From a virus (lineage: Duplodnaviria > Heunggongvirae > Uroviricota > Caudoviricetes): a stretch of DNA of 64,000 bases. This document shows positions 11,802 through 54,969 of this stretch, piece by piece. The notes beneath the pieces were generated by a model, which had not been told where the DNA came from, searched no databases, and was given only the letters and a program-made list of their open reading frames with translations. The translations under genes and the position numbers were made by a program. Location of the stretch: IMG/VR virus record IMGVR_UViG_3300036828_000767, positions 53,516-117,515 of that record; one strand, 5' to 3'. Position 1 is the first letter of the stretch. Every line of letters begins with the position of its first letter.

Positions 11802-11837
11802 GTGAGTTTCAGGCACGTCTTCCGCTCGTCCGAGCCG

Positions 11838-11850
11838 TGTAGTATACTGG
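11838..11850 (+). promoter_or_regulatory. extended -10 promoter-like motif tgtagTATACTgg with conserved upstream ggcacgtcttccgctcgt
   Basis: Same 5' flank as the copy at 23720. Confidence 0.45.
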
Positions 11851-11887
11851 AAGCTTACAGGTAGTCCATCTCCAAGCGGAGGCTCAA

Positions 11888-12106
11888 GTGAACATCGACA
11901 AGGCTCAGCAGGTCGCAAACCGGGTCTACGACCGCGTGCAGCGCGAGCAGGTGAGGCCCGCCGCCGCACGCGGTGAGGGCTTCAACGACGCCGAACTCGC
12001 ACACGCGCACACCATGAGGGCTCTCACGTTCTGGGAGGCCGCAGTCAACTCCCATCCCGCGAGCAGCGCGTACCAGCGCGCGGCCCAGACCATCGCACAG
12101 CTTTAA
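11888..12106 (+). CDS. hypothetical protein (72 aa)
   Basis: GTG after RBS gcggagg, downstream of promoter motif. Confidence 0.45.
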   Translation: MNIDKAQQVANRVYDRVQREQVRPAAARGEGFNDAELAHAHTMRALTFWEAAVNSHPASSAYQRAAQTIAQL

Positions 12107-12128
12107 AGGCGCTGAGAGGAGACACCAA

Positions 12129-12380
12129 ATGTCCAGCGCACCGATAGTCCCGCCGGAAGGGCAGGACACCGAGCAATACGCCGAAGGCTGCGAACAGCAG
12201 TGGGCGCGGGAAGACAGCGTGGTATCCGGGGTGACCGTAAGCAATGGGCGACCCCGGTCCCAGCGCATCCGCGCCAGACGGCGAGTAGACCTAGTGACGC
12301 CCAGGTACTGGGAACGGAACGCGGACGCGGAAACGCCGTGGGCATCCTCCCAGACCCCGGTGCGGAGGCGAGTCAAGTGA
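12129..12380 (+). CDS. hypothetical protein (83 aa)
   Basis: RBS gagaggag. Confidence 0.45.
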   Translation: MSSAPIVPPEGQDTEQYAEGCEQQWAREDSVVSGVTVSNGRPRSQRIRARRRVDLVTPRYWERNADAETPWASSQTPVRRRVK

Positions 12381-12760
12381 CCCGCGCGCAGAACGGCGGC
12401 GACCGGGGCTCCGCCGAGGAACGCAGATACCGCAAGTCGTGGCTCCTGCGCAGATTCGGCAACGGCATCGAAGCACCCTGCTTGCTGCGCATTTCGCCGA
12501 TGTGCGAACGGAAAGTGTCATGGGCGACCATGAACATCGACCGGCTCATCTGCGGGATCGCCGGTGGCACATACGCGCACGGGAACATCATCCCCGCGTG
12601 CTGGCCGTGCAACAGGAAACGCCTCGACAAACCATTGCGGCATGTCATGTCCCGCCGTCGGGTGGAGACACTGCTGCGCCGGCTCGACACAGCCGGTGAG
12701 CGTCGTGACGCGCCCATGCGCCGCGAGGTGCGGAAACTGGTATTGGAGGCCCGGCCATGA
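12377..12760 (+). CDS. HNH endonuclease
   Basis: GTGA coupling; CLLRISPMCERK...D..ICGIAGGTYAHGNIIPACWPCNRKR = C..C...GG..N...C..CN..K HNH motif. Confidence 0.55.
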   Translation: MTRAQNGGDRGSAEERRYRKSWLLRRFGNGIEAPCLLRISPMCERKVSWATMNIDRLICGIAGGTYAHGNIIPACWPCNRKRLDKPLRHVMSRRRVETLLRRLDTAGERRDAPMRREVRKLVLEARP

Positions 12761-12960
12761 GTGACCTGACCGAACGTGAAATCGCCCAGGCTCACACCAT
12801 CGACGACCTCGACCGCGCCTACGGCAAGTTGAAACGGGCCGTCCGTGAACAGCTTCCCATGCTGGACGACGCACGGCACGCGCTCAACCACGGCTCGCCG
12901 GCGGTCACCGCCGAGTACCTGGAACGGGCCGCGTGCGCGCTGAGGAAGGCGCTGTCATGA
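12757..12960 (+). CDS. hypothetical protein (67 aa)
   Basis: ATGA coupling. Confidence 0.4.
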   Translation: MSDLTEREIAQAHTIDDLDRAYGKLKRAVREQLPMLDDARHALNHGSPAVTAEYLERAACALRKALS

Positions 12961-13400
12961 GCAGGTGGACGACAACCGGCAGCGCGACCATCATCCGCGA
13001 GGCCATCCCGCACGTCACCGACGACGACCGCAACACCCGCGGCTACGAACGAATCAGGGCGAAGGCGTCCTACCCGGAGCCGGTGTCGTCGCGGGCCGAA
13101 GCGTACGCGGCACGTCAGAACCGGCTCGCGAAACGACGCGGCGACTGCCCCCGATGTGACGCGGTGCGCGGTCAGCGGTGCTGGGACCTGGCACTGCTCC
13201 CCACCAGGGCGTACGCCCTCGGGTTCCACCGTGGCCGTCCGATGCTGCCGCCACCGGCTGCGACGGTGCCGATGGAAAGAGTCCGGCCGGGCCGCCAGAT
13301 ATGCGCCTGCGGTCACAGGGCGCGCGAGCACAAACACCACGAAGGGTACTGCGGCATGTGCAAAGGCGCATGCCGGAAATTCAAGAGGAGGAAGCCATGA
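12957..13400 (+). CDS. Cys/His-rich hypothetical protein
   Basis: ATGA coupling; CPRCD...CACGH...CGMCKGAC. Confidence 0.45.
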   Translation: MSRWTTTGSATIIREAIPHVTDDDRNTRGYERIRAKASYPEPVSSRAEAYAARQNRLAKRRGDCPRCDAVRGQRCWDLALLPTRAYALGFHRGRPMLPPPAATVPMERVRPGRQICACGHRAREHKHHEGYCGMCKGACRKFKRRKP

Positions 13401-13636
13401 CCGAGCGCACCGGAATAACCATCAAGGCGCCGGGGCTCGCCGCCTGGCTCAGGCAGAACGGCGTCAGCGTCACCGAATACCAGGCCCTCGACCACGGCGA
13501 CAAAGAAGACCTGCGCAGCGCCCTCAGCGACGCTGGCGACTACACGGTGGACAAGGCCACGGCCATGACCGCCCGTGCCGCCTGCCGCCGCGGGCTGCAC
13601 GCCCAGCGGGGTGGCGAGAACCTCATGGGCGCCTGA
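13397..13636 (+). CDS. hypothetical protein (79 aa)
   Basis: ATGA coupling. Confidence 0.4.
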   Translation: MTERTGITIKAPGLAAWLRQNGVSVTEYQALDHGDKEDLRSALSDAGDYTVDKATAMTARAACRRGLHAQRGGENLMGA

Positions 13637-13704
13637 GCCCGCCTCGTACCACCGGGGCACTGTCCCGGTGGTACGGCGAAGGGCTCAGGAAAGGAGACGC
13701 CACA

Positions 13705-53601: not shown

Positions 53602-53614
53602 ATAGGACTTGCCT

Positions 53615-53755
53615 ATGTACTGCGCTATTTGTGGCACGCCCGTGTTCGAAGCGTACGGATACTGGTTCCATGACGTGGAGCCCCGGTACGTTGCCACCCC
53701 TGCCCGGTCGGTCACCGACCACAAGGGCAACGTCATCAGCCTGCCGGAGCTGTGA
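53615..53755 (+). CDS. 46-aa CxxC protein
   Basis: Below ORF-track size cutoff; fills intergenic gap. Confidence 0.25.
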   Translation: MYCAICGTPVFEAYGYWFHDVEPRYVATPARSVTDHKGNVISLPEL

Positions 53756-53931
53756 TGACAAAGGGCGCCAGCAATATCATTGCGGCCGTGTTTGTGCTGC
53801 TTCTCCTGCTGCTCACTGTTTCTGTGGGCGTGCAGATATGGCGGACGGTTACCTACAGTCCGGCTCCTGCGACGTGCGTGAATGTCATCCTCAGCGGCAC
53901 CCATGAACCGATTGTGAGGACGTGCCCATGA
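53755..53931 (+). CDS. small membrane protein (58 aa)
   Basis: ATGA coupling; Leu-rich helix. Confidence 0.35.
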   Translation: MTKGASNIIAAVFVLLLLLLTVSVGVQIWRTVTYSPAPATCVNVILSGTHEPIVRTCP

Positions 53932-54329
53932 TGCGTTCTGCGTTTAACATGCCAGAAGGCGTGCTTTCCATGGAAGCCGAAATGGTTGAGGCGCCTTCCA
54001 TGGGCGGCGGCCCTGACCATAACTGGACGTACACCGACAAACTGGGCCACGACCACTATTACGACGGCTACCCTGTGCCGTACCCGACACTCGTGGACGT
54101 CAGCGATGGCACCTACTACTGCGCAGACTGCCACGACGAGCACGACAGGAGCCACCTGGAATGCCGTATCTGTGGCGAGGAAATTGAACCTGCCGTACGG
54201 GGTGGGAACACGTTCATGCAGTGGGTTCCTGGCCGCAGGCGGTTCACGCTGGACGGCGCGGAGATTACCGAGGCGCGGTTCAACGAGTTGCTGAGCCGCT
54301 ACACCGTTACACCCAGCGGGGGGGAGTAG
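53928..54329 (+). CDS. Cys/His-rich hypothetical protein
   Basis: ATGATG coupling; alternative GTG 53922. Confidence 0.45.
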   Translation: MMRSAFNMPEGVLSMEAEMVEAPSMGGGPDHNWTYTDKLGHDHYYDGYPVPYPTLVDVSDGTYYCADCHDEHDRSHLECRICGEEIEPAVRGGNTFMQWVPGRRRFTLDGAEITEARFNELLSRYTVTPSGGE

Positions 54330-54442
54330 TCTTGGAGGCCCGGCGGGTGGTCAAAGGCAGGGACAGCCTTCGGTCGAGCGCAAGCTCCCGTAATGTTCAC
54401 GCGGCTCGCCCGCGACGTGGTGGTTGGGTGGCTGCCCGCTGG

Positions 54443-54494
54443 GGGAGGCGTCAGCATCGTTACGGGGAAGAACGGTGCTGACGCCCTCCTTTTT
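54443..54494 (+). terminator. intrinsic terminator (13-bp stem ggaggcgtcagca / tgctgacgccctcc + T5)
   Basis: Perfect stem followed by tttttcc. Confidence 0.6.
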
Positions 54495-54528
54495 CCGTGG
54501 AACCAGGTACTTGCGCTCGTTAACGGCG

Positions 54529-54541
54529 TGTAGTATACTAG
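54529..54541 (+). promoter_or_regulatory. extended -10 promoter-like motif tgtagTATACTag plus conserved ctgaccaccacca leader
   Basis: Leader shares the accaccacca element with the 30311 copy. Confidence 0.5.
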
Positions 54542-54639
54542 AAACCTGACCACCACCATGTCCCCATTCAGGGAGGCGAAGCCACATGCACCCTATCCTC
54601 ATATAAAGCCAGGCAGTAAGCAACAACCGAGGGGTCGTC

Positions 54640-54969
54640 ATGACCAAGCCGCTGATGCGCTCATTCCACCGCCTATGGGACCTGCCGGAGTGGATGCAGG
54701 AAGGAACCTGCGTCTTCGAAGGCGACCCTGATTGGTGGTTCCCTGAGAAAGGCGGCCCGGTGGCCATCCTGGAATCACGCCAGGCGGTCCGCATCTGCGA
54801 CCGCTGCCCAGTCCGCACCGAATGCCTCACTTACGCAGACGAACACCATGAACGAGGCATCTGGGGCGGGCTCACCGAACAGCAACGAACCTTGCGCCGC
54901 CGGAACATCCGGCGGCGGCATTCAGACACCGAAAGGCTCCACCTATGTTCGCTCTCGTCATCGTCTTGA
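54640..54969 (+). CDS. WhiB-family transcription factor
   Basis: Four Cys (C..C......C.C....C pattern with CDRCPVRTEC) and GIWGG turn motif. Confidence 0.6.
   Translation: MTKPLMRSFHRLWDLPEWMQEGTCVFEGDPDWWFPEKGGPVAILESRQAVRICDRCPVRTECLTYADEHHERGIWGGLTEQQRTLRRRNIRRRHSDTERLHLCSLSSSS

Follow-up and report, generated by a model that had tools for sequence, protein, structure and literature searches.

A family of five promoter-leader cassettes

In a stretch of 64,000 nucleotides (nt) from an uncultivated virus of the Caudoviricetes (hereafter the window; positions 53,516 to 117,515 of the IMG/VR record IMGVR_UViG_3300036828_000767), five intergenic sites carry a common module around the sequence GTATACT, which we call class II. 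The module spans ~85-90 nt and consists of a -35-like hexamer, a 17-nt spacer, a -10 element, a G-poor leader (CTGACCACCACCAYGTCCAAAACC) and the Shine-Dalgarno (SD) sequence GGGAGGC, followed at a distance of 4-9 nt by a start codon. The five copies, named here after their GTATACT sites (11842, 23748, 30314, 43702 and 54533; Table 1), are paralogous, orthologous modules are conserved in related phages, and the leaders have no RNA structure in common. We consider it probable that they represent old paralogous cassettes of promoter, 5' untranslated region (5'UTR) and ribosome-binding site (RBS), of a -35-dependent, sigma-A-type class with an open leader and a strong SD sequence, which are held by purifying selection and drive what are probably co-regulated accessory units. 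The modules would then act as promoters with a defined transcription start, and their leaders would serve translation.

The consensus of 12 sequences reads ..TTGYGCTCRTnnnCGGCRKGKAGTATACTRGAAnCTGACCACCACCAYGTCCnAAAnCRGGGAGGC, N4-9, ATG. All five copies have TATACT as the -10 and, at a spacing of exactly 17 nt, a -35-like TTSYNN hexamer, which is directly followed by TCGT in four of them. The hexamers match TTGACA at only 3-4 of the six positions, and those of the orthologous modules are TTGTGC or TTGCGC. Leaders of the consensus type contain 1-3 G per 24 nt, and only 0.6-2.3% of the genomic 24-nt windows are equally G-poor. The sequence GGGAGGC stands upstream of just 3 of 107 predicted starts, all of which belong to class-II cassettes, and GGAGGC is present in all five copies. 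The genes behind the five modules show no mutual similarity and, apart from the gene for a WhiB protein, could not be assigned to a family.

Similarity beyond the -10 element and the ribosome-binding site

A preliminary description of the window had reported that pairs of these sites share strings of sequence, and all of the strings were recovered with small coordinate offsets. The sequence ggcacgtcttccgctcgt is located at 11812-11829 and 23718-23735, the first copy beginning 9 nt before the range 11821-11887 given earlier, though still within the overall 11810-54640. Likewise, CTGACCACCACCAYGTCC is found at 30326-30343 and 54546-54563, and CCCACCACCATG at 43716-43727. The sharing between the leaders starting at 23757 and 30323 consists of GTCCAAAACCGGGAGGC (23776-23792 and 30340-30356), which has just these two copies in 64 kb; the tail that follows GGGAGGC had been slightly mis-transcribed and in reality reads tcaaATG in one and aagcATG in the other.

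The modules are real, but their number, previously given as four copies or six leaders, is five. A family profile scored with nhmmer assigns 48-76 bits to the five copies and no more than 8.5 bits to anything else in the window, the next matches being the -10 regions of another promoter class (class I, see below). This profile includes the copies that it scores, and profiles built from one orthologous group each served as a control. These find the other window copies over ~45-80 nt with E-values of 1e-14 to 1e-2, except for a few pairings with 43702 or 11842, and give E-values above 0.01 to the class-I promoters. Furthermore, repeat finding recovered the family unaided (repeats D7 and D8, 39-55 nt). 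When the 45-nt regions before predicted starts were compared pairwise (5,670 pairs), first and second place went to the leader pairs 23797/30361 (score 17) and 30361/54586 (score 16), against a background of 5.9 +/- 1.2. The window paralogues are 37-81% identical in the segment from -36 to -1 and 27-68% identical in the leader.

By the leader-pair ranks, profile E-values and paralogue identities, the similarity thus extends beyond the RBS and the -10. As had been proposed, the copies share more than a sigma motif, namely the hexamer resembling a -35, some of the spacer, the first ~22 bases of the presumed transcript and a GGGAGGC that is unusually invariant. The module was not found outside the phage group of the window in IMG/VR, the INPHARED phages or the GTDB genomes, and the five stretches identified in JGI metagenomes were all located on contigs of the type of one relative (relative C, see below).

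Strings of 11-13 nt at or near the RBS are also common to other pairs of unrelated genes in the window: 25761/30667 (GCGGCAACAAC.AAGGGAG), 158/20793 (TAAAGGAGCCACG) and 53615/53928 (CTGAACCGAT.G.TAGGAC.TGCC). This phage genome may reuse translation-initiation regions more generally.

Two promoter classes with one -10 element

The window contains 16 GTATACT sequences where 1.05 are expected, a ~15-fold excess. Twelve promoter-like sites, including one GTAGACT variant, are all located on the + strand and in intergenic gaps. Class I comprises six of them (1618, 5131, 6063, 41806, 47065 and 52163), which have the form gTGGTATACTAGA with a TGn-extended -10 and no common upstream element. The five class-II sites read (T/G)AGTATACTRGA, without the TG, and site 50427 (gttGTATACTact) falls outside both classes. 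The minus-strand matches to GTATACT, five out of five, coincide with the class-II sites because the 8-bp sequence AGTATACT is palindromic. As regards a candidate repressor site of the operator or stoperator type, this palindrome is confined to class II and coincides with the -10, and no repressor-like gene was recognisable among the 114 open reading frames (ORFs).

Two class-I copies are leaderless, with an ATG 7 nt after TATACT (1618-1633 and 47065-47080), and the leaderless spacing is kept in three related phages (L012:4852 in relative A, L022:8798 in relative B, and L025:2790). Because these ATGs sit at the expected start site and the spacing is conserved, they support the interpretation of TATACT as a real -10 element, which also places the likely start site. 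By analogy with the leaderless class-I spacing, class-II transcripts likely start at about (C)UGACC, so that the conserved block would form the extreme 5' end of a ~34-40-nt UTR. Class II differs systematically from the TGn-extended -10 promoters and, for this reason, most likely forms a separate co-regulated temporal or regulatory class.

Some features of individual class-I sites were also recorded. The gene with its ATG at 47078 continues with codons (ATGACCGACCACC) that are similar to the class-II leader at its 5' end (CTGACCACCACC). The leader of promoter 52163 (52170-52223) begins with a 5' hairpin, GCGGAG-acca-CTCCGC, whose stem shows compensatory changes in relatives, followed by conserved GGCTTCCCC..GAAAGGAG; copies in relatives are located at L022:13330, L024:4575 and L023:3521. 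This conserved 5'UTR differs from that of class II and may act as a 5' stabiliser. Directly upstream of promoter 6063 is a strong hairpin with a T-run that resembles an intrinsic terminator (6000-6037).

Conservation in related phages and history of the copies

Six metagenomic phages, relatives A-F, were obtained by protein searches and subsequent contig look-ups; their proteins are 49-79% identical to those of the window. The search of related phages that had been suggested in the preliminary description returned orthologous modules from five of them, relatives B-F. The 43702 unit is absent from relative A, and the GTATACT motif is wholly absent from the distant relative L027 (~51% protein identity). 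No extra or displaced module copies were found in ~60 kb of related sequence, and the module positions are for this reason regarded as syntenic.

Orthologous modules are 70-90% identical from -42 to +46, several of them wholly gap-free, whereas four-fold degenerate sites of conserved residues in the adjacent genes are only 41-71% identical. For the leader alone, 199 of 253 pooled positions are identical as compared with 356 of 619 four-fold sites (Fisher p = 2e-9), and for the 30314 module in the window and relative C the corresponding numbers are 80/89 and 91/149 (p = 1e-6). The 30314 module in relative C is a 91-nt, 90%-identical island flanked by indels, with ~620 nt of extra genes upstream of the module in the window and an extra gene of 90 amino acids (aa) downstream of it. 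At 23748, an insertion of ~970 nt in the window ends at the upstream edge of the module, and downstream only a 26-codon ORF (23797-23877) remains of the 163-aa gene located behind the orthologous module in relative C. The higher identity of the modules than of the four-fold sites and the indels that abut the module edges indicate that purifying selection covers the -35, the spacer and the leader, beyond the -10 and the RBS.

The paralogues share their longest strings piecewise, 11842 and 23748 upstream, 23748 and 30314 near the SD sequence, and 30314 and 54533 near +1. The 23748 module of the window lacks CCACCACC, whereas its orthologue in relative C keeps the full CCACCACCATGTCCAAAA. The pattern is most simply explained by one ancestral cassette with lineage-specific losses, for which recombination between modules need not be assumed. 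Of all pairs, 11842 and 23748 seem the youngest, since GGAGGCTCAA(A/G)TG is also common to both.

A model for the class-II cassettes

We hypothesize that the promoter part of the cassette is a -35-dependent promoter of the sigma-A/sigma-70 type, composed of TTSYGC, a spacer of exactly 17 nt beginning with TCGT, and TATACT without a TGn extension. The transcript would have a short 5'UTR, starting at about CTGACC, poor in G, rich in C and A (ACCACCACCAYGTCCAAAACC) and single-stranded by prediction, which would present the fixed, strong SD sequence GGGAGGC 4-9 nt before the start codon. The copies may have arisen by cassette duplication before the phage group diversified and now occupy syntenic positions in the relatives. 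Purifying selection on the strength or class of the promoter and on an open, efficiently translated initiation region may be what holds them together. Class II most likely constitutes a separate co-regulated temporal or regulatory class that would drive small accessory genes (WhiB, a lipoprotein and ORFans).

Several observations weigh against this model. The exact strings of 17-18 nt in old paralogues exceed what an unstructured leader alone would need, so that a sequence-specific reader or gene conversion may also play a part. The segment CCACCACC has been lost from two of the five copies (11842 and 23748), although it is kept in the relative C orthologue of the latter, and is therefore not indispensable. 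Furthermore, only relatives B-F provided orthologous modules, they are not independent samples, and no orthologue of module 11842 was retrieved from the relatives.

Alternative explanations

One alternative, possible but in our view doubtful, is that the spacer (TCGT...CGGCRTG), the bases from +1 to +22 (CTGACCACCACCAYGTCC) and GGGAGGC together form the site of a dedicated trans-acting factor, which would make the five units a true regulon. Such a factor could be encoded by the phage or its host and could read either the DNA or the 5' end of the mRNA, for example as a Wbl protein or sigma adaptor, a roadblock repressor, or a RegB-like or translational regulator. In sigma-70-type promoters, the spacer and the initial transcribed bases normally vary freely, and here both are conserved between old paralogues as well as between orthologues. 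Moreover, four promoters carry CCACCAC at a constant position, +14 to +17 counted from the G of GTATACT; class-I site 41806 is one of them, and its orthologues have the sequence as well. That GGGAGGC is restricted to the cassettes brings to mind the start-associated sequences of phages in Clusters K and EF, for which factor binding has likewise been suspected; in addition, the WhiB regulator is itself placed under a class-II cassette. Against a factor speaks that the conserved leader lacks dyad symmetry, that CCACCACC is missing from two of the five copies, and that WhiB is the only recognisable transcription factor, or DNA- or RNA-binding protein, among the 114 ORFs. An antisense or small-RNA partner was also sought, but with up to three mismatches allowed, the complement of the leader does not occur in the window.

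In a more specific and rather unlikely form of this idea, CUGACCACCACCAYGUCC (+1 to +22) and GGGAGGC are the recognition element of a candidate regulator that switches a small accessory regulon on or off during infection. This regulator could be the cassette-driven WhiB, acting with sigma-A on the -35 and spacer, or a protein that binds or cleaves RNA at the 5' end of the mRNA. If true, an uncultivated actinophage clade of ~117 kb would possess a system like the start-associated sequences that comprises a defined promoter class.

Two candidate elements in the flanks were rejected. A 'double site' of flanking CAYGTC sequences did not hold, the hexamer being common (64 plus-strand copies) and its spacing inconsistent. 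A GTGAC-N4-5-GTCAC dyad, considered as an operator and present only eight times in the window, accompanies just three copies, at 1-23 nt from the -35, and includes the stop codon of the upstream gene. As an observation in its own right, the small dyad GTGACGYAGG(G)TCACATTC (variant GTTAC..GTAAC) is located 5' of three modules (30254-30272, 43665-43683 and 23692-23707) and also before the module at position 3467 in relative C (L014 ~3420-3436), where it likewise contains or overlaps the stop codon of the upstream gene.

It is improbable that the similarity is mainly historical or recombinational. In that case the modules would be short homologous linkers, kept alike through gene conversion, at which genes are exchanged in mosaic fashion, and the leader sequence would mean nothing specific for regulation other than that it brings a promoter and an RBS along. 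Gene indels that distinguish the window from relatives C and D lie directly at both edges of the modules, the same module stands before different genes (90 aa in the window and relative D versus 155 aa in relative C; a 26-aa remnant versus 163 aa), and the paralogues have piecewise-identical blocks of 17-18 nt. However, the modules are syntenic in all relatives, with no extra or moved copies in the 60 kb of related sequence, and one consensus with lineage-specific losses explains the piecewise pattern, the 23748 orthologue in relative C having the full consensus. In addition, a comparison between phages shows slower divergence in the modules than at synonymous sites, a difference for which conversion within a genome gives no account.

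We also considered the possibility that the shared leader is a cis-acting RNA switch (a riboswitch, attenuator or thermosensor). In its favour, the leader is conserved and separates the promoter from the start codon, some copies allow CGUCCA or CAUGU to pair with the region of the start codon, and a small upstream ORF (uORF) lies behind the WhiB cassette. We nevertheless reject this explanation as very improbable, because RNAalifold predicts no pairs (0 across 12 leaders), the leaders fold like shuffled sequences, and Rfam 15, searched with the entire window at the gathering cutoffs, gave 0 matches. Folded one by one, nine leaders showed no excess of structure over shuffled sequences (z +0.07 to +1.7), the exception being a private hairpin in the 43702 leader (43727-43747, GCGCGG-aaacaaaag-CCGCGC; z -2.6), which relative B keeps (L022:5660) with one C-G to U-A change. 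The leader is, moreover, just ~34-40 nt long and nearly free of G. A helix between CAYGUCC and the start codon was dismissed, since it forms in some copies only, in differing registers, and is absent in relative C, so that there is no covariation. A small leader ORF starting in CCACCATG was likewise set aside, its ATG being replaced by ACG in 30314 and its orthologues. The 6-codon uORF (54586-54606, MHPILI*) lies between the SD sequence of module 5 and the WhiB start; relative E has MNRILV* of the same length at the same position, and the uORF is absent in relative B. The preliminary description had taken leader conservation to imply a common regulatory input, by an activator or repressor site or by a leader-based switch. 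A five-copy class distinct from the TGn-extended -10 promoters, and selection in the relatives, fit such an input; the switch does not survive.

Finally, although a -10 and an SD sequence are present in every copy, a chance likeness limited to these two elements deserves practically no credence, given that the leader pairs are the top two of the 5,670 control pairs, that profile E-values reach 1e-14 over ~45-80 nt, and that the module is conserved in orthologues.

The phage and the features of the window

The window has a G+C content of 64.5%, and its credible genes are all located on the + strand. Its proteins recur, identical in sequence, on a JGI contig of 117.5 kb and a Logan contig of 47.6 kb, and there is no nucleotide match to the INPHARED phages. 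The recognised domains are WhiB, ERF, RlaP, amidoligase/GATase, SPFH, Rv2179c-like and DUF1707, and the amidoligase and WhiB genes have their best phage matches in Mycobacterium, Gordonia and Tsukamurella phages. The G+C content, the domain set and these best matches point to an uncultivated actinobacterial phage of high G+C content and large size (at least 117.5 kb) as the source. Neither tRNA genes nor Rfam families were detected in the window.

The coordinates of the modules, their orthologues and the class-I sites used for comparison are given in Table 1. The sequence around module 5 suggests that it is a self-contained unit with a strong upstream terminator, its own promoter and WhiB as its accessory gene.

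Table 1. Class-II modules, orthologous modules in relatives, and class-I comparators. Positions without a prefix refer to the window.
Feature	Position	Strand	Elements	Downstream gene or remark
Class-II module 1 (11842)	11799..11890	+	-35 TTCCGC 11820-11825; 17-nt spacer; -10 TATACT 11843-11848	58.9 bits
Module 1 leader	11855-11887	+	GTCCA and GGAGGCTCAA retained, CCACCACC lost	GTG 11888 of 72-aa ORFan
Class-II module 2 (23748)	23708..23799	+	-35 TTCCGC 23726-23731; -10 23749-23754	60.7 bits
Module 2 leader	23761-23796	+	holds GTCCAAAACCGGGAGGC	ATG 23797 of 26-aa ORF (23797-23877)
Class-II module 3 (30314)	30272..30363	+	-35 TTGTGC 30292-30297; -10 30315-30320	76 bits; nearest to family consensus
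Module 3 leader	30327-30360	+	TGACCACCACCACGTCCAAAACCGGGAGGCAAGC	ATG 30361 of 90-aa ORFan
Class-II module 4 (43702)	43660..43772	+	-35-like TTCCTT 43680-43685; -10 43703-43708	47.6 bits; most divergent
Module 4 leader		+	CCCACCACCATG; private hairpin 43727-43747; SD GGAGGC 43758	ATG 43770; 151-aa predicted lipoprotein (signal read from sequence)
Intrinsic terminator	54443..54494	+	long GC stem and TTTTT	directly upstream of module 5; T-run kept in relatives B and E
Class-II module 5 (54533)	54509..54642	+	-35 TTGCGC 54511-54516; -10 54534-54539	65.2 bits
Module 5 leader	54546-54585	+	CTGACCACCACCATGTCC...GGGAGGC	uORF 54586-54606; WhiB start 54640
Orthologue of 23748	L014:3467			relative C
Orthologue of 30314	L014:9951			relative C
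Orthologue of 30314	L016:36			relative D
Orthologue of 43702	L022:5660			relative B
Orthologue of 54533 (WhiB)	L022:16774			relative B
Orthologue of 54533 (WhiB)	L024:6748			relative E
Orthologue of 54533 (WhiB)	L023:5673			relative F
Class-I comparator (1618)	1615..1633	+	gTGGTATACTAGA	leaderless, ATG at 1631; RlaP-family gene
Class-I comparator (5131)	5128..5140	+	gTGGTATACTAGA	
Class-I comparator (6063)	6060..6072	+	gTGGTAGACTAGA	terminator-like hairpin upstream
Class-I comparator (41806)	41803..41843	+	short leader with CCACCAC, spaced from the -10 as in class II	orthologues in relatives A and B
Class-I comparator (47065)	47062..47080	+	leaderless, ATG 47078	same arrangement in L012 (relative A), L022 (relative B) and the L025 phage
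Class-I comparator (52163)	52160..52226	+	other conserved leader, 5' hairpin	

Other repeated sequences were also recorded in the window. The genes at 4108-4767 and 52224-52850 are paralogous (55% aa identity over 97 residues; the 180-nt DNA repeat D6), as are two amidoligase-like genes at 34834-35805 and 37348-38670 (29% aa identity over 251 residues). Downstream of class-I promoter 6063 and gene 6141-6653, a unit of ~39-42 nt (ACGGC[GA]GGCCYGCCCA, N7-8, ACGACAGYCA, N8-10) is repeated over 30 times in a ~1.8-kb array of two blocks (6320-6910 and 7750-8960). The array is probably non-coding because its spacings are not multiples of three; it may represent iterons or an origin, or an RNA array.

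Significance and comparison with known systems

The class-II family does not by itself reveal a new mechanism. It does define, together with class I and with evolutionary backing, two promoter classes for a clade of large, uncultivated actinobacterial phages, and a ~90-bp cassette of promoter, 5'UTR and RBS that selection appears to have kept intact for long periods. The two classes should aid the annotation of transcription units, leaderless starts and the true start codons of ORFan genes, and the cassette could, given a host, become a portable expression part for high-GC Actinobacteria. More generally, the family offers a well-controlled case for the question of why actinophages conserve start- and promoter-associated repeats beyond the needs of RNA polymerase and the ribosome.

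The early promoters of T4 and the host-takeover promoters of SPO1 are present in many copies that use the host sigma factor, are conserved outside the hexamers and drive small early or accessory genes, with a consensus that stops near +1. The class-II cassettes resemble them in their extended conservation and small accessory genes, but here the whole 5'UTR and RBS are repeated as well. Morons are autonomous units of promoter, gene and terminator in lambdoid phages, without a common promoter-leader sequence. Module 5, with its upstream terminator, promoter and WhiB gene, is similar to a moron, and the gene content beside the modules varies between relatives; unlike morons, the modules have a promoter-leader sequence in common.

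The start-associated sequences (SAS) of Cluster K mycobacteriophages and Cluster EF Microbacterium phages, with their upstream extensions (ESAS), are suspected by their authors, though not demonstrated, to bind a factor (PMC3203893, PMC7302621). Like these, the cassettes have a motif at the RBS position that is conserved beyond the needs of 16S pairing (GGGAGGC here, GGGATAGGAGCCC and GGGAAAGGACCCC there), are linked to a conserved upstream extension, stand before unrelated non-structural genes and are conserved across subgroups. A SAS is, however, a 13-bp motif in 10-19 copies at 3-7 bp from the starts, whereas the fixed core here is 7 nt long, with three exact copies (3-5 copies overall) at 4-9 nt. 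Where the ESAS has 17-bp imperfect inverted repeats, the cassettes have a -35/-10 promoter and a G-poor leader, with GTGAC...GTCAC dyads at three copies only and at a variable distance from the -35, and the sequences are unrelated. The class-II family is not a member of the SAS/ESAS group, and the likeness is one of kind only.

Closer parallels are a 50-bp motif that includes a -10 and has five copies in the Gordonia phage Vardy of cluster DJ (PMC9671010), and the 18-bp TAGaCTATaGGTgTaAgC of the cluster EC Microbacterium phages, with 12 copies located 22-30 bp before starts (PMC7302621). As in these repeated intergenic motifs of actinobacteriophages, the class-II modules are present in a handful to a dozen copies of the same orientation, in short gaps among non-structural genes, tens of bases before the starts of unrelated genes, with a -10-like TA...T core (TAGACT/TATACT), conservation well beyond it and a function deduced from the sequence. 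Their TANNNT-type -10 and the -35-like hexamer in the range of 16-18 nt upstream are those of sigma-70-family promoters, as judged by sequence. Unlike the known motifs, the class-II sequence resembles nothing in the INPHARED phages, the module extends over more sequence (~85-90 nt) and takes in the -35, spacer, whole 5'UTR and RBS, two promoter classes with one -10 coexist in a single genome, and conservation at orthologous loci has been set against a synonymous-site baseline. The class-II family thus belongs to a documented general kind, the promoter-containing or RBS-placed intergenic repeats of actinobacteriophages.

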